Positions 1-10,309 of a stretch of 10,309 nt of DNA are shown one piece after another. The notes beneath the pieces are model-generated. The model was given only the letters and a program-made list of their open reading frames with translations, did no database searches and was not told the DNA's origin. Both the position numbers and the translations under genes were made by a program. This stretch comes from a virus (taxonomy: Duplodnaviria; Heunggongvirae; Uroviricota; Caudoviricetes). Location of the stretch: IMG/VR virus record IMGVR_UViG_2859783438_000007; one strand, 5' to 3'. Numbering within the stretch: position 1 is the first letter of the stretch; every line of letters begins with the position of its first letter.

Positions 1-31
1 GGTAAATCCCCCTGTTGGTAATGACTCCAAC

Positions 32-253
32 TTATTGATAGTGTTTTATGTTCAGATAATGCCCGATGACTTTGTCATGCAGCTCCACCGATTTTGAGAA
101 CGACAGCGACTTCCGTCCCAGCCGTGCCAGGTGCTGCCTCAGATTCAGGTTATGCCGCTCAATTCGCTGCGTATATCGCTTGCTGATTACGTGCAGCTTT
201 CCCTTCAGGCGGGATTCATACAGCGGCCAGCCATCCGTCATCCATATCACCAC
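32..253 (-). pseudogene. insB: IS1 insB, 3' fragment (last ~73 codons), fused in frame to the B' frame over insA by the internal deletion
   Basis: The C-terminal 73 aa of ORF 32..439 (-) match the InsB C-terminus. The N-terminal 62 aa are the alternative (B') frame across insA. The frameshift window and the InsB catalytic N-terminal region are deleted. Confidence 0.85.
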
Positions 254-254
254 G

Positions 255-410
255 CGTACCGGGTTGAGAAGCGGTGTAAGTGAACTGCAGTTGCCATGTT
301 TTACGGCAGTGAGAGCAGAGATAGCGCTGATGTCCGGCAGTGCTTTTGCCGTTACGCACCACCCCGTCAGTAGCTGAACAGGAGGGACAGCTGATAGAAA
401 CAGAAGCCAC
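255..410 (-). pseudogene. insA: IS1 insA, 5' portal of the gene only (first ~52 codons native, then out-of-frame junction)
   Basis: ORF 216..410 (-) begins [52 protein letters not shown], identical in character to IS1 InsA, then diverges ([12 protein letters not shown]) after the deletion junction. Confidence 0.85.
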
Positions 411-480
411 TGGAGCACCTCAAAAACACCATCATACACTAAATCAGTAAGTTGGCAGCATCACCTCATTCGTCTGTTCC

Positions 481-987
481 TTAAATCTTCCAGGAAATTT
501 CTGCATTGCCGTCAGCATCACCGGCACCTGTGAATTCAGCGTTGGTCAGCACCACGTTTTTGCCACTGACTGACGTGGACATGAATCCACCCAGCGGCAC
601 TTTGATGGATTCATCAGTGGAGACGACAACGTATACCGGATCGCCTTTTTTGATAGTGCTGGCATCAAAATCAGAACCGAGATTAACGGTCACGTAGCCA
701 CGCTTCATGGCGTCGCCCGGGAAGTTCTTGCCTGTTCCCACCTGGCGAACCATGTCCGGCTGCGACGTGGTCGGATAAGGGCGCACGTAGATCCCCTTCA
801 CCTTGTCTGCGGTATCACCATCTGCCAGCGGCACGAAAAAACCGTCATCATCGTATTTACCAGCCAGGCCATAGGCAGCGAAGGCGTTATCGGATTTAAG
901 GACCACCGGTTCGACGGTTAAGTCCTGCGGGCGAGAGACAGCCCCGGCAATGCCAACAGGCATCCGGTACAGAAATACATTATTCAT
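481..987 (-). CDS. phage head structural protein, possibly decoration-like (168 aa); family not recognised with certainty
   Basis: Complete ORF with ATG at 987 placed 3 nt after the TAA of the upstream gene, and AAGGG 7 nt upstream. It sits in the head module after the portal, F-like and scaffold/protease-like genes, where lambda-like layouts put a decoration protein before the major capsid gene. Gly/Asp/Val-rich and beta-rich in character. Function is inferred from position only. Confidence 0.45.
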   Translation of the reverse strand: MNNVFLYRMPVGIAGAVSRPQDLTVEPVVLKSDNAFAAYGLAGKYDDDGFFVPLADGDTADKVKGIYVRPYPTTSQPDMVRQVGTGKNFPGDAMKRGYVTVNLGSDFDASTIKKGDPVYVVVSTDESIKVPLGGFMSTSVSGKNVVLTNAEFTGAGDADGNAEISWKI

Positions 988-990
988 TTT

Positions 991-2211
991 TTACCCTTTA
1001 CGGTTTGCCCAGAATTCAGCGTTTTGTTTGTTCAGGGAAGCGATACTGGTCATGCCCATGTTTAGGCGCTGTGCATCGCCGGTGGTGGCGCGGGTGTTTC
1101 GCCCTTTGGCAACCTCAGACACGGCATTAAACGCCATGTCGACCGATTGTTTCGGTAATTTGCGGATATCCGCATCACCGACTATCTGGCGAACCAGCGT
1201 TTTGTCAGCAGAAGCCAGAACCTCGCGTTTGAACGCGGTCGGTTTCATCTTACGGCTCAGATCGATACCCGGAACGATAACTTCGGCACGCCAGGCTGAG
1301 TCACCAGTAATCGTGGTTTCCTCTTCATCGTCCTCGCCGTCACCGGTCGGATTATCGTCAGGCTTATTATCGTTATCGCCCGTGGCATTTCTTTCCAGCT
1401 TAGCCAGCAGGGCTTTCAGTAATGTTTTGAGGTCATCATCACTGTCGCCGGTTGGATCTCCGCCCATCTCTGGTGCTTTGTCCGGTAGTGGTTGCTGCGG
1501 GGACAGGTTGATGTTGAGATTAACGCCCTGCGGCAAATCCCCCTCATCTCCTGTAACCGATGCGGGAGCCGACTCCACCAGTTCGTTCATGGTGTCGGCA
1601 TCTCCTGTCTTGATGGCCGCACGCATGCGGTTCCACCAGTTTTTCTTTTGATTTGCCATTGTGTCTCTGTCTCCAATTGCACAACGATTTCCGGCTCTGC
1701 CTTTAGGGACAAGAGCCACATGGTTTCCGGTAATATCGACCTGCTCGGCTTTACCTGGCTCGGTCTGCTCGTACTCCGCGTCATAGCCGCACGACACTTC
1801 GCGCAGGCCATCTTCGATAAGCTGAATGGCGCTTTCGTCTTTGACGATAAGGTCAGCCAGCATCAAATCAGACTGCTCACCCGTCCCGCGCCGGACATTC
1901 TGGAGGTGCCCGACAGCAAGCTCTTTCCAGTTCTCGGGATTTACCAGCCGCACATTCCCGTTTTCATCTTCAGGATGCAGGATCGTGATGCTCATCCCTT
2001 CGAATGAGGCAAGCGTGGCCGGATGGAATACCTGCTCAGGAGAACGCGTGACGACTATTTCACCGAACTTATCGGGTTTCAGTTTTGGCAGGTCATCAGC
2101 ACCATAGAGCTGCTTACCTGTTCGTCCTATCGGCACGTCTTTGCACAGCAACGAGCCGTCAGCCAGGCGGTATCGGGTTTCCCCGAGCCTGGTCTCAAAA
2201 AAGTATTTCAT
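991..2211 (-). CDS. phage head-assembly protein (406 aa): N-terminal domain resembling DUF2213/XkdF-type putative prohead protease or scaffold, a central acidic TGD-repeat linker, and a C-terminal domain
   Basis: Complete ORF with ATG at 2211, 3 nt after the TAA of the F-like gene. It lies between the head-morphogenesis and small structural genes, as XkdF lies between portal and capsid in PBSX-type modules. Residues ~204-306 are highly acidic with a recurring T-G-D motif. Family assignment is from memory and unverified. Confidence 0.5.
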   Translation of the reverse strand: MKYFFETRLGETRYRLADGSLLCKDVPIGRTGKQLYGADDLPKLKPDKFGEIVVTRSPEQVFHPATLASFEGMSITILHPEDENGNVRLVNPENWKELAVGHLQNVRRGTGEQSDLMLADLIVKDESAIQLIEDGLREVSCGYDAEYEQTEPGKAEQVDITGNHVALVPKGRAGNRCAIGDRDTMANQKKNWWNRMRAAIKTGDADTMNELVESAPASVTGDEGDLPQGVNLNINLSPQQPLPDKAPEMGGDPTGDSDDDLKTLLKALLAKLERNATGDNDNKPDDNPTGDGEDDEEETTITGDSAWRAEVIVPGIDLSRKMKPTAFKREVLASADKTLVRQIVGDADIRKLPKQSVDMAFNAVSEVAKGRNTRATTGDAQRLNMGMTSIASLNKQNAEFWANRKG

Positions 2212-2214
2212 GGG

Positions 2215-2997
2215 TTATGCTGCCCTTTTCATTGCGAATGGAACGCGAACAAACACGATCTCTTTATAGCAGCGGCAGTTTGGCAGCTCGCCCGCGTGGC
2301 CGGTCATGCCGTCCAAAGTTGGAGGTGAATCCCAGCGGACGAATTTACCTTTCATGTGATCGTGGGAATCTCGGACATCGCCATCATCGGCTGTACGCCA
2401 AATATAACCATCCGAGCCAATAGCTATCGCTCGGGCCATATCCAGCGCGCCCGTTGCTCTTCCCAGTTCCGTTCGGGCAATCAGATCGGCCCTAGACTTA
2501 GCAACATCGCCGGTAGATGCAATCTCTTTAGCAAACTGCTCCGCCCGACCACCGGTGACAACAGCCTCTATCGCTTTGTTCTGGATGTCGTACACCCTGT
2601 CTGCGGCCTCGAGAGGCAGAGATTTGATGTACTTGACCTGTTCGGCGATGATGGATTGCATCACCTGGCCCACAGGAGCGCTTTCCACAAGATTGCGGAG
2701 CTCGCGACTGATGTTCTTGCTGTGTTGCCGCCAAACTTTCTCGTTCTGCCGGGTTAGGTCCGCAGTAAAGTTTTCCGCGACCTTTGTCGCCCAGGGGGTG
2801 ATGATTTCACTGTAACGCTCCAGCGCCGCAATAATTTCCGTGATACTGTCATTTGAACCATCGTAGCGACCATTTACGATGTCTCCGACCGCCCTCGCTA
2901 TCCTGCGTAGGCTGGTTCGATACCGGATTTCCGCCTGACGGCTCCTGCGGTTCGTCATCAGGTTCGCCGATGCCGGGCGGCGCTTCATCTTCGGCAT
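2215..2997 (-). CDS. phage head morphogenesis protein, Mu F / SPP1 gp7 family (260 aa)
   Basis: C-terminal region has the character of the Phage_Mu_F domain (…ADLIARTELGRATG…YIWRTADDGDVRDSHDHMKGKFVRWD…LPNCRCYKEIV…). ATG at 2997 has GAGGA 8 nt upstream; alternative ATGs lie at 2988 and 2958. The 5' end overlaps the portal 3' end by 149 nt in another frame. Confidence 0.8.
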   Translation of the reverse strand: MPKMKRRPASANLMTNRRSRQAEIRYRTSLRRIARAVGDIVNGRYDGSNDSITEIIAALERYSEIITPWATKVAENFTADLTRQNEKVWRQHSKNISRELRNLVESAPVGQVMQSIIAEQVKYIKSLPLEAADRVYDIQNKAIEAVVTGGRAEQFAKEIASTGDVAKSRADLIARTELGRATGALDMARAIAIGSDGYIWRTADDGDVRDSHDHMKGKFVRWDSPPTLDGMTGHAGELPNCRCYKEIVFVRVPFAMKRAA

Positions 2998-4315
2998 TCT
3001 CGATGTCCTCGTCGGTAATGGATGCCCCGATGCCGGTTACGTCAGAATTTTCTCGCAAATCAGTCATAGCGGCTTTCAGTGTCATCAGACCATCACCCAG
3101 CGCCGTACTGATTGCGTTGGTGGTGTTTAACGCCACCGTTGAGCGATCGACATCAGACATTTGCCAGAGCGGGTTAAACTCAAACGTGAAATCGTCCGGC
3201 AGCGGCTTGCCAAGTTCCGAACGATGCATGATGTCCAGTATCCGCCGCACCGGAAGACGTAAACGCCTCTCCTGCAACGAACTGATGCGATCGTAATAGT
3301 TGGCAAGGTCTGCATCACCGGTAGAAAATCCTTTCGGGGACTGTCCGAACAACCGCACCAGTGGGATACCAACAGCGCCACTAATCTGTTCTACAAACTG
3401 CGAAAGGATGTCATCCAGACCACTGAAGCTGTACTGATGGGTTTCAAACTTATCCCGCGAGTCCATGAGCGTCATGCCTTCATTACTCTGGAACTGTCGA
3501 ATCAGGTCGATATTCTTCAGCAACGCTTCATACGCAGGACCACCAAGTGCGATAAGCTCGCGTAGCTTCTCCACGCTGTAGGTACGCAAATGCGCCTTGT
3601 AGACCAGCTGCGCCGCGCCGACAGTAGCGCTGTCGAACGCGGTAAGACGATCCCAGATACGCTCTACAACCGACATTCCCCATTCGTTCTCGGTCATCTT
3701 CTGCTGAAATGGCAACGTGACGCCATCAAAGCGAATCAGGCGACTGTGATGAATGCGCCAGGCAGGAATTCCCGTTGCTGTGGTCACCACATCGTAAAAC
3801 TCAGGTTTACCCAGGTCCGGCCCCATATCTTTAATGCGGCGGGTCAGTGCCGGGTCGACCATCCAGCGGTCGAGCGGGAGAATCCCCTTAAACTTGCCCT
3901 TACCGATGGTTTCGGGTCGCAGCGGGGTCATTGGTGCCTACCCCTCAATCATGATGAAACCCACCGCGCCGCCGTAGAGGCGCGACCATTTCAGCACGTC
4001 ATTCAGCGCATCCCAGATTTGCAACTCATCCAGTTGTGATTCGAGAATGCCACGATCTTTTGCATCAATTTCCGAAGTGATGCGAATGCCTTTGCGGGTC
4101 ATATCATCCGGGATAGCATCGACTGCTTCGCCGATGATCTAGGATGAACGATAGGACCATTCCACCAGCATGCGGTTACGACTGGTGAAATTAGCCCGGT
4201 AGGTGGATGCTGAGTGCTGGTTAGGTGTCTGCATCCCTACGCGGGCAATAAAATTCTCATAACCATCAGCTGTGGCCTGCACAGTTCGCCGCAGGGCTTG
4301 TTTGTTTCGTGCCAT
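2849..4315 (-). pseudogene. phage portal protein gene, ~489-codon frame interrupted by two in-frame TAG codons (plus-strand coordinates 4139-4141 and 3938-3940)
   Basis: ATG at 4315-4313 overlaps the TerL TGA stop (TGATG). My manual translation of the minus strand gives MARNKQALRRTVQATADGYENFIARVGMQTPNQHSASTYRANFTSRNRMLVEWSYRSS-TAG-IIGEAVDAIPDDMTRKGIRITSEIDAKDRGILESQLDELQIWDALNDVLKWSRLYGGAVGFIMIEG-TAG-APMTPLRPETIGKG…, continuing into ORF 2849..3931 in the same frame (4315-3931 = 384 = 128 codons). The 128 codons upstream of 3931 contain no TAA or TGA. Size, position after TerL and the acidic C-terminal tail fit a portal. Confidence 0.7.
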
Positions 4316-5718
4316 CAGGCCTGTCTCCCCAGCTGTTCCCAGATATCCAGCGATGTATCGATTGGCGCGAAGGCCATAATGAATGCATCAGCAACGTTTG
4401 GTGACGGTATCTCGCGTTTTGCGAGGTCTTTTTTACTTTCGACCATCACACGTCCGTTACGGTCGAAATCACGATGAGGTGTTGTCAGTTCCAGTTTCAG
4501 CTTTTCAAGCAACGGACAACGAGAATCTATGCTGATCAGCTCATCCACAGGATACTGTTCTCCGTTGTTAATGGCGTTAAACGTATTTCTGAAACGGTCA
4601 GCCACCAGCCACCATGCCTGAGCCTTAAGATTTGCGAAAAAGTCTTTGTTGGGGATGCCGTTGTACTCGTCATCTGGCTCATGCACACCAGCACCGGCGT
4701 TAAACCTCTGGTAATTCACACGTCGCGCGTATGCGTTCTCGCTCTTCCGGTCAGCGTTAATTTCAGAGAATTTAGCACCGGCAGACGCACCAACACCGAT
4801 AGAGTCGTAAACAATATCTGCTTCACGCTCCAGCGCCGCCTGATAAGTACGCTGGCAGCTCTTCAGTAATTCATCTTCTTTGGCCTTCCATTCGTCGGCC
4901 CAGAAAACAACGGATCCGTGACGGTAAACGTTAGCGCACTTATCTGTACCACTGTCAGCCACGTCAAAGCCAATACGCTTTCTTCCACTGGGTTCGAAAT
5001 TTAACGTTTTGTGCGCATCCACTGCGGCTTCTATCCAAGACAGTTTGATGATTGCCGCATCATCATCAGACTCCGGAACGCCCTCATACACATGTTTAAA
5101 ACCATCCGGATCACGGCGTCGCGCCGCGTCGATAACCTTAAGCATGGTGTCAGACAGAAACGGATTTTCGTCATAGTTAATTTTGCGGATGAGAGTGCCT
5201 TCGGGCGGATCAACAACGAAGTTGCGCCAGACGAAATCAGTAACAAGTCCGGGGTTGAATATGAACCAGCATTCCGAACCCTCTTTACGGATCGTTGGCT
5301 CCAGAATTTTCCACTGGTATTCCGTCAGTGCGTGGGCTTCTTCCAGCCACAACACATCGATCCCCTCCAGTGACTTAATTTCTTCGATGTTGCGCCATAA
5401 TCCATAAAAAACAAATTCCGAGCCAGTAACCCGGTTAATGATTTTGTTGTTCAGAATACGGAAACGGTGCCGCAGACCAAACCTGTCTATCTGAATTTTG
5501 AGCAGGGTATACACCGACTCTTCGATTTTATTCTGGATCTGACGGGCACAACAAAAACGCAGGGTGTATTTATTCGACAGAAATATGGCAATGCCAGCGG
5601 CATCCCATGATTTTGACGATGACCGACCACCATAAAGCACTTTGTTACGTGCCCGCATAGTCCAGAAACTACGTAAAGCCGGATTCAGCGTCGGTTTGGA
5701 TGTCAGAGTAGAAGTCAT
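4315..5718 (-). CDS. phage terminase large subunit, PBSX-like family
   Basis: N-terminal block …LNPALRSFWTMRARNKVLYGGRSSSKSWDAAG… matches the deviant Walker-A region typical of PBSX-type large terminases; ~467 aa with an acidic C-terminal nuclease-like region. I chose ATG 5718 (MTSTLTSKPTLNPALR…, GGAGAG ~10 nt upstream). The ORF-track start at 5826 is a TTG; ATGs at 5757, 5745, 5742 and 5736 are alternatives. Confidence 0.85.
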   Translation of the reverse strand: MTSTLTSKPTLNPALRSFWTMRARNKVLYGGRSSSKSWDAAGIAIFLSNKYTLRFCCARQIQNKIEESVYTLLKIQIDRFGLRHRFRILNNKIINRVTGSEFVFYGLWRNIEEIKSLEGIDVLWLEEAHALTEYQWKILEPTIRKEGSECWFIFNPGLVTDFVWRNFVVDPPEGTLIRKINYDENPFLSDTMLKVIDAARRRDPDGFKHVYEGVPESDDDAAIIKLSWIEAAVDAHKTLNFEPSGRKRIGFDVADSGTDKCANVYRHGSVVFWADEWKAKEDELLKSCQRTYQAALEREADIVYDSIGVGASAGAKFSEINADRKSENAYARRVNYQRFNAGAGVHEPDDEYNGIPNKDFFANLKAQAWWLVADRFRNTFNAINNGEQYPVDELISIDSRCPLLEKLKLELTTPHRDFDRNGRVMVESKKDLAKREIPSPNVADAFIMAFAPIDTSLDIWEQLGRQA

Positions 5719-6433
5719 TGAGGTCACGCTCTCCATTGCCATCATCAATACCTGCATCACGGCGAAGACGATCAGCCTCCAGAGACACCTTATCAGTGGC
5801 GGCCTTGCGGTAGGCTGTATCAGCAAATATTTTTCCTACCGTCGCAAGCGTGCCAACGATGGACTCAATACGAACTGTATTGCGCATCATTGCTTTCTCG
5901 GCGGCGCTGATATTTTCAATCAGCATCTTCCTTTCCTGGTCCCCATTAGCATCTTCCAGCGACACCAACCACCGACCAATATTCTCTGCAGCGACAAGGT
6001 TGTTAGCACGAAGGCGAAATAATTCGTCCTCGAGCGTCAACGCTTTAGCGTCCTCTATCACCTCATCTTTGAGCAGAAGGCGACGGGCATAACCACCGTG
6101 TTTTAATGCCTGCTGGTTACCGGGTTGGAATGGGTTAGTCGGGGGATCGGTACGCATTCCGCGTATCGGTTTCGTATCCGGTGTAGATTCTGTTTTTAGT
6201 TGCGTACTTTTTTGTGTAAGGCCAGTAATGGCAGGCTTTCTGCTGGTACGCACTTTCCTTTTTTGCGTACCATTTTTGCAAACCTGCGTACCGCCACTGC
6301 GTGCCCAACCAAGCTTTTTGGCCCTCTTCCTGATAGCCCCTTCTGTAACGCCGTATTTCTCGCCTATATCACGGAGGCTAAGGACTCCGGCCCGGTATGC
6401 CGATTCGATGGCCTCCCAGTCCGGTTTTGCCAT
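5669..6433 (-). CDS. phage terminase small subunit (254 aa) with N-terminal helix-turn-helix
   Basis: Immediately upstream of TerL, overlapping it by ~50 nt. N-terminus MAKPDWEAIESAYRAGVLSLRDIGEKYGVTEGAIRKRAKKLGW is HTH-like, as in many small terminases. AGGAAG lies 7 nt upstream of the ATG at 6433. Stop is TAG at 5669-5671. Confidence 0.65.
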   Translation of the reverse strand: MAKPDWEAIESAYRAGVLSLRDIGEKYGVTEGAIRKRAKKLGWARSGGTQVCKNGTQKRKVRTSRKPAITGLTQKSTQLKTESTPDTKPIRGMRTDPPTNPFQPGNQQALKHGGYARRLLLKDEVIEDAKALTLEDELFRLRANNLVAAENIGRWLVSLEDANGDQERKMLIENISAAEKAMMRNTVRIESIVGTLATVGKIFADTAYRKAATDKVSLEADRLRRDAGIDDGNGERDLNDFYSDIQTDAESGFT

Positions 6434-6695
6434 GATTATGCTTCCTGTGATTTACTGTTATCGCTGCCTGTCACAATAGGTTGCTTTAATTCTTCCTCAT
6501 CACTCACTCCTGCGACGCTCCGTGGCAGGGCCCCCCACAGGAGTACCTTGTAAATGTAAGGTGTTTAAGCCTAAATTAAGTCGTATCACGGTTAAATAGC
6601 AAAGAAAAATTCACAGAAGGAAAGACATTGATGGAGTGGATAAATGCTTTGATGAACTATTTTGTACTTCATCCATATCGCCTATGTGAAGTGGC

Positions 6696-6822
6696 TGAAG
6701 TGGTCAACAAAAACTGGCCACCGAGTTAGAGTTTTTCCAGTATCGATTTTCCGATTCGTTTGGGGGTAACCCACCGTTATATTCGTGCGGTCTTAGTGCG
6801 CTGTAATATCCAACGATATAGT
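6696..6822 (-). mobile_element. IS911 right-end fragment, 127 bp, inverted relative to the complete IS911 at 8026-9274
   Basis: 6696-6822 is the exact reverse complement of 9148-9274 (…ctatatcgttggatattacagcgcactaagaccgcacgaatataacggtgggttacccccaaacgaatcggaaaatcgatactggaaaaactctaactcggtggccagtttttgttgaccacttca). The length equals the 127-bp overlap repeat seen at the first N gap. Confidence 0.85.
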
Positions 6823-7214
6823 AAGCTTAGTCAGCCGTTGTCTCCGGGTGTCGCGTGCGCAGTTGCACGTCATTCTCAGACGAACCGATGACTGGATGGA
6901 TGGCCGCCGCAGTCGTCACACTGATGATACGGATGTGCTTCTCCGTATACACCATGTTATCGGAGAGCTGCCCACGTATGGTTATCGTCGGGTATGGGCG
7001 CTGCTTCGCAGACAGGCAGAACTTGATGGTATGCCTGCGATCAATGCCAAACGTGTTTACCGGATCATGCGCCAGAATGCGCTGTTGCTTGAGCGAAAAC
7101 CTGCTGTACCGCCATCGAAACGGGCACATACAGGCAGAGTGGCTGTGAAAGAAAGTAATCAGCGATGGTGCTCTGACGGGTTCGAGTTCCGCTGTGATAA
7201 CGGAGAAAAACTGC

Positions 7215-7314
7215 NNNNNNNNNNNNNNNNNNNNNNNNNNNNNNNNNNNNNNNNNNNNNNNNNNNNNNNNNNNNNNNNNNNNNNNNNNNNNNNNNNNNNN
7301 NNNNNNNNNNNNNN
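7215..7314. other. assembly gap (100 N)
   Basis: Run of exactly 100 N, flanked by a perfect 127-bp direct repeat. Confidence 0.99.
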
Positions 7315-7441
7315 CTTGAGCGAAAACCTGCTGTACCGCCATCGAAACGGGCACATACAGGCAGAGTGGCTGTGAAAGAAAGTAATCAGCGATGGTGCTC
7401 TGACGGGTTCGAGTTCCGCTGTGATAACGGAGAAAAACTGC
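7315..7441. repeat. 127-bp perfect direct duplicate of 7088-7214 across the N gap (contig-end overlap artefact, not a biological repeat)
   Basis: 7088-7214 (cttgagcgaaaacctgctgtaccgcc…cggagaaaaactgc) is identical to 7315-7441. 127 is a common maximum k-mer size in de Bruijn assemblers. Confidence 0.85.
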
Positions 7442-7925
7442 GAGTCACGTTCGCGCTGGACTGCTGTGACCGTGAGGCACTGCACTGGGCGGTCACTACG
7501 GGCGGCTTCAACAGTGAAACAGTACAGGACGTCATGCTGGGAGCGGTGGAACGCCGCTTCGGCAACGAGCTTCCGGCGTCTCCAGTAGAGTGGCTGACGG
7601 ATAATGGTTCATGCTACCGGGCTAATGAAACACGGCAGTTTGCCCGGATGTTGGGGCTTGAACCGAAGAGCACGGCGGTGCGGAGTCCGGAGAGTAACGG
7701 CATAGCAGAGAGCTTCGTGAAAACGATAAAGCGTGACTACATCAGTGTCATGCCCAAACCAGACGGGTTAACGGCAGCAAAGAACCTTGCAGAGGCGTTC
7801 GAGCATTATAACGAATGGCATCCGCATAGTGCACTGGGTTATCGCTCGCCACGGGAATATCTACGGCAGCAAGCCAGTAATGGGTTAAGTGATAACAGGT
7901 GTCTGGAAATATAGGGGCAAATCCA

Positions 7926-8025
7926 NNNNNNNNNNNNNNNNNNNNNNNNNNNNNNNNNNNNNNNNNNNNNNNNNNNNNNNNNNNNNNNNNNNNNNNNNNN
8001 NNNNNNNNNNNNNNNNNNNNNNNNN
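7926..8025. other. assembly gap (100 N) between the IS2 right end and the IS911 left end
   Basis: Run of exactly 100 N; no flanking duplicate. Both flanks are IS termini. Confidence 0.99.
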
Positions 8026-8097
8026 TGAAGTGGCACACTGAATTTGGCCACCTGAACAGAGGTGATATGCTCACCTCAGAACAACACAGGTGCTCCA

Positions 8098-9266
<1,169 letters not shown>

Positions 9267-9274
9267 CCACTTCA

Positions 9275-9706
9275 TTACTGCAGTCTCTTCCTCACTGCTA
9301 AGCTCCCGAATCACTTTGCCCCGGGGATTCTTCTTTACAAGTATCATTGGCATAATGAAAGCACTCCTTATGTACATGCTTAAACAGTAAGTAAAATATA
9401 CAAAGAACACCCCATGAAACAAAGGCAGAGATGAACTGTGCGCCCCGATATCTTCTTCTGATATCCTTTCAAATGAATTGTTTTTATTTATATCATGACA
9501 ACATTAAAGTGAGAGAATATATCAACCATGTTTCTGTCAGGGTTCAGTAGAATATCAATTCGACTGTCACGCCATAACTGTTACTACCTCGAGTATAAAT
9601 ACTCAGAGAACGGACTTATTAGCCATGAAAAATCACCTGATGGGAAATTTACTAATTTATGAATTGTGATATTATTAAAGAGTAAAACCAGCCAGCCGAG
9701 GTATTT
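9275..9706 (+). promoter_or_regulatory. AT-rich non-coding region upstream of the FinO/ProQ-like gene (putative promoter/leader; possible small RNA or small ORFs)
   Basis: About 430 bp with no substantial ORF on either strand and visibly AT-rich. GAGG at 9698-9701 is a Shine-Dalgarno 5 nt before the ATG at 9707. No promoter was mapped. Confidence 0.3.
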
Positions 9707-10309
9707 ATGGGAAAAAATCAGGAAGAAAGGAAAACTCCCGTCATTGTGGTGAAAAAACGTCGTACTTTTTCGCCACCGTCCTTATCCGAAAAAACAGATA
9801 TTATCGCACCTGTATTTACTGAACAGACGGCAGAATCAGCCCCCGCCGGAATAAATTCATCTGCCGTCGAAACACATATCCCCGAAGCGCCAGCCAGGAA
9901 GAAGAAAAAGAAAAGACACCGTTTTCCACGTCCCTCCCACTGGACCCGTGAGTATACTCACGAGTGCGTGGAAAAAATAAAGGCCCTGTTTCCTCATCTT
10001 CGTGCTGAAGGTGGTGGATTTATTCCCCTGAAAATTGGCATAAACAATGATATATCGGCATTTCTGGCAGAACACCCGGAGACAGAACTGACCATGGACG
10101 AATGGCTCTGTGCAGTGTCCTGCATCACATCCCGCCGCGTATATCTGCAGCGGACAGCTGTCGCCGGCGTCCCACGTTATGGCCTGGATGGTCACCCCAA
10201 AGGGCAGGTCTCAGACTCTGAAGCACAGAGTGCCGGTCGCAGACTGGCGACATTAGAACAAAAGTGGCTCAGGATGCAGGCACAGCAGGAGAATATTTCT
10301 GGGCAATAA
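9707..10309 (+). CDS. ProQ/FinO-family RNA-binding protein (FinO-like, 200 aa): basic disordered N-terminus plus ProQ/FinO domain
   Basis: …IKALFPHLRAEGGGFIPLKIGINNDISAFLAEHPETELTMDEWLCAVSCITSRRVYLQRTAVAGVPRYGLDGHPKGQVSDSEAQSAGRRL… aligns by eye with the E. coli ProQ N-terminal domain (…[22 protein letters not shown]…[34 protein letters not shown]). The N-terminus (MGKNQEERKTPVIVVKKRR…KKKKKRHRFPR) resembles the basic N-terminus of F-plasmid FinO. Good SD; TAA stop at the window end. Confidence 0.85.
   Translation: MGKNQEERKTPVIVVKKRRTFSPPSLSEKTDIIAPVFTEQTAESAPAGINSSAVETHIPEAPARKKKKKRHRFPRPSHWTREYTHECVEKIKALFPHLRAEGGGFIPLKIGINNDISAFLAEHPETELTMDEWLCAVSCITSRRVYLQRTAVAGVPRYGLDGHPKGQVSDSEAQSAGRRLATLEQKWLRMQAQQENISGQ

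Follow-up and report, generated by a model that had tools for sequence, protein, structure and literature searches.

Two amber codons in a portal pseudogene of a cryptic ipaH-prophage remnant in Shigella sonnei

The closest described relatives of the gene considered here are the portal genes of SEN34-like temperate myoviruses (SEN34, ALF02478.1; the vB_EcoM-606R2 group; WP_000113499.1), whose open frames of 488 codons feature Trp59, Gln126 and Ala308. The present copy of this gene lies in IMG/VR virus record IMGVR_UViG_2859783438_000007, a 10,309-nucleotide stretch of tailed-phage DNA to which we refer throughout as the window. It shares with these portals its length of 488 amino acids, its gene order and a gap-free alignment at 85–99.8% nucleotide identity, but reads TAG, TAG and Val at the three positions named. 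The portal is ~98% identical to those of several hundred other E. coli prophages and of phages vB_EcoM-606R2, 689R2, 611R5 and 683R1, and 85–87% identical to those of Salmonella phage SEN34 and Citrobacter phage Omnitron.

Portal genes interrupted by nothing but amber codons are familiar from the laboratory, where conditional-lethal mutants such as T4 gene 20 am, lambda Bam and P22 gene 1 am are grown on suppressor hosts. Those mutations reside in complete phage genomes, whereas in the window the allele is a natural one, fixed, and the remnant around it has no capsid or tail genes. A second precedent comes from lacI, in which amber mutations classically concentrate at Dcm methylation sites (CC[AT]GG), with an over-representation of ~10-fold (Coulondre et al., 1978, as related in PMC12606429). 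The change of Trp59 to TAG is of just this kind, a G:C to A:T transition at the methylated position of such a site that yields an amber codon, although here only one of three changes falls at a Dcm site, which is predicted from sequence context.

A third point of reference is the decay of Shigella genomes, including their ipaH-bearing prophage islands on the chromosome. All Shigella reference genomes hold at least 199 pseudogenes, and the insertion sequences (IS) IS1, IS2 and IS911 have expanded in them (Hawkey et al., 2020, PMC7373316). The locus described here is likewise a truncated prophage flanked by IS1 and by IS911/IS2, with a fixed pseudogene, and with ipaHb in its intact relative. Unlike the conserved S. 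sonnei pseudogenes scored by Hawkey et al., all of which are IS-interrupted (PMC7373316), the window portal was killed by point nonsense mutations. Our reading, to which we assign a probability of about 0.93, is that of a portal gene turned pseudogene by nonsense mutations, within a cryptic remnant of an ipaH prophage in S. sonnei.

A portal reading frame interrupted by two amber codons

The portal frame occupies positions 2849–4315 of the minus strand and comprises 489 codons, that is, 488 codons and a terminal TGA at 2851–2849. Its ATG (4315–4313) overlaps by one base the TGA (4317–4315) that ends the gene for the terminase large subunit (TerL). The sole stops within it are the TAG at 4141–4139 (codon 59) and the TAG at 3940–3938 (codon 126); upon retranslation from 4315 to 2849, no TAA, TGA or frameshift is found inside. 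The original prediction, drawn from the letters of the window, had described this frame with the same boundaries, the same two ambers and no other lesion, and it was correct throughout. Some 23 stops would be expected by chance in 489 codons, and the region aligns with intact 488-amino-acid portal genes at 99.8% nucleotide identity, colinear and without gaps, with three differing positions. Because the stop count is so far below random expectation, and because of this gap-free colinearity with intact portals, the frame is open far beyond chance.

Family searches were run with both TAGs read as sense codons. The resulting product matches PF06381 (Phage_portal_3) over residues 55–402 with E = 8e-105 and 350.8 bits (cutoff 33.8), TIGR01555 (HI1409) with E = 8e-76 and 255.5 bits (cutoff 196), and phrog_146 over residues 3–488 with E = 3e-174. 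The gene order, with the small terminase subunit (TerS) followed by TerL, the portal and a MuF-like gene, puts the frame in the slot of the packaging and head module where a portal is expected. What distinguishes it from a working member is the interruption of its coding sequence (CDS) at codons 59 and 126, so that 2849–4315 is, as judged from these features, a predicted pseudogene of the PF06381/HI1409 portal family and not a functional member.

The two ambers divide the frame into three open reading frames (ORFs) on the minus strand: one of 58 amino acids at 4139–4315 (codons 1–58), one of 54 at 3938–4102 (Met72 to codon 125), and one of 360 at 2849–3931, which runs to the natural stop from Met129 (3931–3929), the first ATG after the second amber, and is deposited as UniProt Q3Z426_SHISS. 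The original prediction would have fallen had homologs shown these segments to be separate genes. They show one gene of 488 amino acids instead, single and colinear in 338 E. coli genomes (those in which at least 80% of the portal gene is covered, all 30 listed being annotated with one CDS), in viable phages and in 42 IMG/VR copies, which rules out three separate genes.

The dead portal is already known to the databases, as split “putative bacteriophage protein” ORFs. The three fragments have been deposited as separate proteins, under the product name “putative bacteriophage protein [Shigella sonnei]”, and this is database clutter that deserves a flag. The 54-amino-acid fragment carries the UniRef label “Alpha/beta hydrolase” and is matched exactly by phrog_28295, a family of 54 positions built on this piece of a pseudogene. 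Several partial DUF1073 portal fragments are named “anti-CBASS protein Acb1 family protein” by NCBI; the NCBIfam match here is to TIGR01555 only.

Ancestral codons and fixation in Shigella sonnei

Relative to the portals of strains FDAARGOS_943 and FDAARGOS_944, the window copy has exactly three changes, all G:C to A:T transitions. At codon 59 (4139–4141), TGG (Trp) has become TAG through a coding-strand G to A change at window position 4140; at codon 126 (3938–3940), CAG (Gln) has become TAG through C to T at 3940; and at codon 308 (3392–3394), GCA (Ala) has become GTA (Val). The original prediction had placed each amber one transition from CAG or TGG, which the alignment with homologs that it called for makes exact: the residues replaced are Trp59 and Gln126. 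Every intact homolog checked features Trp59, Gln126 and Ala308 (GCA or GCT). These codons were read in FDAARGOS_943, FDAARGOS_944, A34, PEC148 and phages 606R2, SEN34 and Omnitron, as well as in S. flexneri SFBU1023, “E. coli” ECMA0423 and more distant enterobacterial copies; the VL40 portal, 99.8% identical, is annotated as an intact CDS and was judged from that identity and annotation, not from its codons.

A scan of IMG/VR prophages with a degenerate pattern accepting either state at these codons gave the ancestral ones in all copies from outside S. sonnei (42/42), together with four TAG/TAG copies, each identical to the window. No intermediate with a single amber was among the copies so caught. 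An independent portal disruption is seen in UViG 2526164633_000041, which keeps Trp59 and Gln126 and loses the frame from codon 344. With PEC148 as outgroup, the window and FDAARGOS_944 differ at 7 positions over 6,221 bp; S. sonnei has the derived state at three of these, all in the portal, and FDAARGOS_944 at the other four. Both ambers and A308V are thus derived on the S. sonnei branch.

Window positions 254–6686 are 100% identical to HE616528.1, the chromosome of S. sonnei 53G, a lineage II strain (PMC5447701). An exact look-up of the 360-residue product returns complete chromosomes, HE616528.1 among them, and all S. sonnei assemblies examined share the 58/54/360 split. Each fragment occurs in 2,576–2,758 assembly index blocks and at least 1000 contigs; these exact-fragment look-ups read the longest contigs, which were without exception from S. 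sonnei. Every S. sonnei locus examined reads TAG/TAG/GTA, with 0–2 other differences per 6.4 kb and none at those codons, and the TAG/TAG haplotype recurs in independent complete genomes (53G, 75/02, CP022457, CP044191 and others) and in four IMG/VR contigs. The two ambers are therefore fixed in S. sonnei, and the comparison across strains that the original prediction had proposed comes out as ambers shared by the S. sonnei assemblies and sense codons in intact relatives. Some S. sonnei assemblies feature additional single-base indels or single-nucleotide variants in the DUF2213 gene, TerL/TerS or the portal (at the equivalents of window 1543 and 5693, for example), which could be continuing decay or homopolymer errors of long-read assemblies.

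Partner-gene loss, mutational origin and rival explanations

The partners of the portal are gone as well. In FDAARGOS_944, an essentially complete prophage sits beside pgl-ybhD-ybhH-ybhI-ybhJ-ybhC, the same chromosomal site, and holds the major capsid, neck, sheath, tube, baseplate and fiber genes, with the type III secretion effector gene ipaHb at the fiber end. In S. sonnei 53G, the capsid cement gene is followed by IS1 and then directly by pgl, and in the intact relative the capsid, tail and ipaHb genes fill more than 20 kb between the two points so joined. The complete S. sonnei genomes also have an IS within the holin gene. The phage tRNA cluster, which in the intact prophage comprises four genes (Gly-tcc, Thr-tgt, Arg-tct and a CAT-anticodon tRNA annotated as Ile), retains only the CAT-anticodon tRNA in some S. 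sonnei genomes and nothing in others, with an IS adjacent (2320–2393 in the S. sonnei locus vs. 13623–13933 in that of FDAARGOS_944). With capsid genes, tail genes and ipaH cargo deleted, the portal as predicted from this gene content cannot matter functionally.

The history that we propose begins with an ipaH-carrying temperate myovirus of the SEN34/vB_EcoM-606R2 type, which would have integrated beside pgl-ybhD. In the S. sonnei lineage, a deletion bounded by IS1 would then have taken out the major capsid gene, the tail genes, ipaH and all that lay between them, and further IS elements would have damaged both the holin gene and the cluster of phage tRNAs. The portal would have gained its three G:C to A:T transitions (Q126 to TAG, W59 to TAG and A308V), the change at codon 59 probably through deamination of 5-methylcytosine at a Dcm CCTGG site and the other two as ordinary C to T events. 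Translation would now halt at codon 59, presumably without read-through, such that no functional portal is made; none would be needed, since no capsid can be built.

The case for deamination at codon 59 is its ancestral context, CATCCTGGATC, in which the mutated G pairs with the Dcm-target C of CCTGG, which has become CCTAG. Neither codon 126 nor codon 308 lies in a Dcm site. As 6 of the 795 G/C positions in the portal pair with 5-methylcytosine at Dcm sites, the probability that one of three changes would fall there under uniform mutation is 0.022. G:C to A:T is in any case the normal bacterial mutation bias, and 28 of the 49 possible nonsense changes of this type in the portal (57%) give TAG. 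For this reason it is unremarkable that both stops are amber (P ~ 0.33). A deaminase-toxin signature, for which TC or CC contexts would be expected, was considered and set aside: the contexts are G[C]A, G[C]A and C[C]A, three events with no consistent pattern beyond the Dcm site. Chemical mutagenesis or a laboratory double-amber construct is likewise rejected, the allele being present in natural isolates, including 53G and 75/02.

As to timing, a substitution rate of 6.0e-7 per site per year is quoted for S. sonnei in PMC7373316, at which three changes in 6.2 kb would take, roughly, some hundreds to two thousand years, the Poisson range being wide. This supports a probably recent inactivation of the portal. 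The neighboring genes have 0 substitutions in 4.7 kb at ~5e-4 per site. Because so short a time itself predicts intactness, the intact state of the TerS, TerL, MuF, DUF2213 and cement genes is not a sign of constraint.

Several observations weigh against a simple, neutral decay of the portal in S. sonnei. Two nonsense changes among three substitutions have a probability of ~0.011 under a uniform neutral G:C to A:T model, and that all three changes on the S. sonnei branch fall in one gene has a probability of ~0.013–0.036 (~0.036 for any single gene); this excess of nonsense together with the clustering could hint at selection for portal loss. ORFs of 360 amino acids that start at Met129 are also found in S. 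dysenteriae, so the lesion at codon 126 may not be private to S. sonnei. The search for suppressor tRNAs covered the window and the prophage loci, a part of the S. sonnei genome. Finally, the role of Dcm in S. sonnei is read from the CCTGG context, dcm itself lying outside the window.

The S. dysenteriae observations bear on where the first amber arose. By exact protein look-up, strain 155-74 has a 360-amino-acid product starting at Met129 with the ancestral Ala308, while strains Sd197 and 1617 have a diverged version with four extra amino acid changes relative to the intact protein. In Logan assemblies there are a 125-amino-acid N-terminal product with Trp59 (3 contigs), a 417-amino-acid product from Met72 (1 contig) and an intact portal protein with Val308 (1 contig). 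Judging by these protein products, the frame may be broken ahead of Met129 outside S. sonnei too, and the amber at codon 126 may precede W59am and A308V. That this amber predates S. sonnei and is shared with S. dysenteriae lineages we nonetheless regard as improbable. A contig scan for the portal locus gave matches in S. flexneri and none in S. dysenteriae, and PMC4445032 offers no phylogenetic placement for strain 155-74. Were the amber so shared, an ipaH prophage whose portal already had it would have moved among Shigella lineages unrelated to one another, whether through recombination of the inactivated locus or by growth as a phage on natural hosts carrying an amber suppressor or a helper; the alternative to a shared amber would be that the same nonsense site was hit repeatedly.

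Among rival explanations of the lesion itself, the one that survives best holds that portal loss was selected, or that the C-terminal product of 360 amino acids (Met129 to the end) was domesticated or is made by re-initiation after the second amber. In its favor are the excess of nonsense and the clustering noted above, the intact TerS, TerL, MuF, DUF2213 and cement neighbors, the S. dysenteriae ORFs, and the ATG two codons past TAG126, ahead of which there is a purine-rich GAGGGGTAGG. On the other hand, the 360-residue product starts only after residue 128, which costs it ~70 residues of the PF06381 domain, and has A308V at an invariant position. The four further changes in the Sd197 version (as compared by eye with the intact protein) suggest relaxed constraint, the intactness of the neighbors is what so short a time would predict, and a portal knock-out gives the host no protection from prophage lysis.

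Nor do we read the skewed P values as selection, because the window was chosen for having two stops, because one of these stops lies at a mutational hotspot, because a second stop comes free once the first stop or the loss of the capsid is in place, and because the unpolarized divergence of the portal equals the prophage-wide average. The statistics are in this sense post hoc. Between S. sonnei and FDAARGOS_944 that divergence is ~0.2% over ~10 kb of prophage and the same in the portal, and on this ground, with the ascertainment on stops, the clustering was rejected as a sign of selection. We consider a selected loss or a domesticated product highly improbable, and the inactivation of the portal to have been, in all likelihood, neutral.

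A second rival explanation would have the full-length portal made through amber suppression, by a suppressor tRNA of the host or of a co-resident element, so that the gene would be conditionally functional much as in the laboratory mutants. Both stops are of the same type, and a supE-type suppressor would restore Gln126 exactly; against this, both stops being amber is expected a third of the time from G:C to A:T mutation alone, as calculated above. No tRNA gene is present in the window, the only tRNA in the S. sonnei prophage loci has a CAT anticodon, and the search for a CUA anticodon, confined to the window and the ~21 kb around the locus in S. sonnei, found none. TerS ends in TAG, which the original prediction had pointed out as a true stop and which our reading of the codon bears out. 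Within the literature searched, no paper connects S. sonnei with amber suppressors. A restored full-length portal would moreover be pointless, because no capsid or tail genes are left for it to assemble with. Suppression is thus a very remote prospect. Of the two options that the original prediction had offered, recent inactivation stands, the ambers being derived and fixed in a decayed prophage, while expression in a suppressor background finds no support, given that no CUA tRNA was found at the locus and that TerS ends in TAG. Reassignment of the code or programmed read-through is rejected too, as relatives have sense codons at these positions and TerS terminates with TAG.

An error of sequencing or assembly at either TAG or at both, which would have undone the original prediction and which the draft-like, rearranged look of the window (an internally deleted IS1, an IS/plasmid mosaic after 6686) might lead one to suspect, is already refuted by the same TAG/TAG haplotype in independent assemblies, and we attach next to no probability to it.

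The surrounding remnant and the meaning of the lesion

The prophage part of the window is confined to 466–6686 (~6.2 kb), and its other packaging and head genes are intact and on the minus strand. Upstream of the portal are TerL (4315–5718; 467 amino acids, PBSX family) and TerS (5669–6433; 254 amino acids, phrog_370, E = 7.5e-95). Downstream of it are a head morphogenesis gene of the Mu F/SPP1 gp7 type (2215–2958), which overlaps the 3' end of the portal, a DUF2213/Pa193_gp24-like head gene (991–2211) and the gene for a Gp24-like capsid cement protein (481–987), the last prophage gene before the IS1/prophage junction at 465/466. The IS1 copy itself (17–465), with an internal deletion of 318 bp, stands in place of the major capsid gene and all that lay downstream. 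These 318 bp are present in the full IS1 at the same site in 53G, where window positions 1–254 and 254–465 map to 14250–13997 and 13678–13467 of the locus; the gap could be a real internal deletion or a collapsed assembly.

At its other end, the prophage is cut upstream of TerS, inside a DedA-family gene, by an IS911-like end and a mosaic of IS2/IS3-family elements (6687–9274). Beyond 6686 the window no longer matches any of the complete S. sonnei genomes examined, the IS911-like end cutting the DedA-family gene after ~59 nt. Positions 9275–10309 are of plasmid type, with a ProQ/FinO-family gene and yagA, and 1,167 of their 1,189 E. coli matches are on plasmids. The right part of the window (6687–10309) may reflect a junction of chromosome and plasmid, a rearrangement mediated by IS elements or a wrong join in a draft assembly.

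The relatives are themselves of some interest. FDAARGOS_944 (NZ_CP065613.1, 4314900–4346000) looks like a strain of enteroinvasive E. coli (EIEC) or Shigella type that has been filed as E. coli. FDAARGOS_943, in which the portal is intact, has a TerL split by IS2 and a head-morphogenesis gene annotated with an internal stop, a case of independent decay. The S. sonnei remnant, for its part, looks like the relic of an ipaH-delivering phage.

For the biology of S. sonnei, the loss of this portal carries little weight: it is ordinary gene decay, of a kind to be expected in the IS-rich, pseudogene-rich genomes of Shigella. Its uses are modest. Codon 59 would serve as a clean natural example of an amber mutation at a Dcm site, the deposited fragments call for the flag raised above, and the TAG/TAG/GTA haplotype is a fixed marker that separates S. 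sonnei from the intact copies that EIEC and S. flexneri have of this ipaH prophage.

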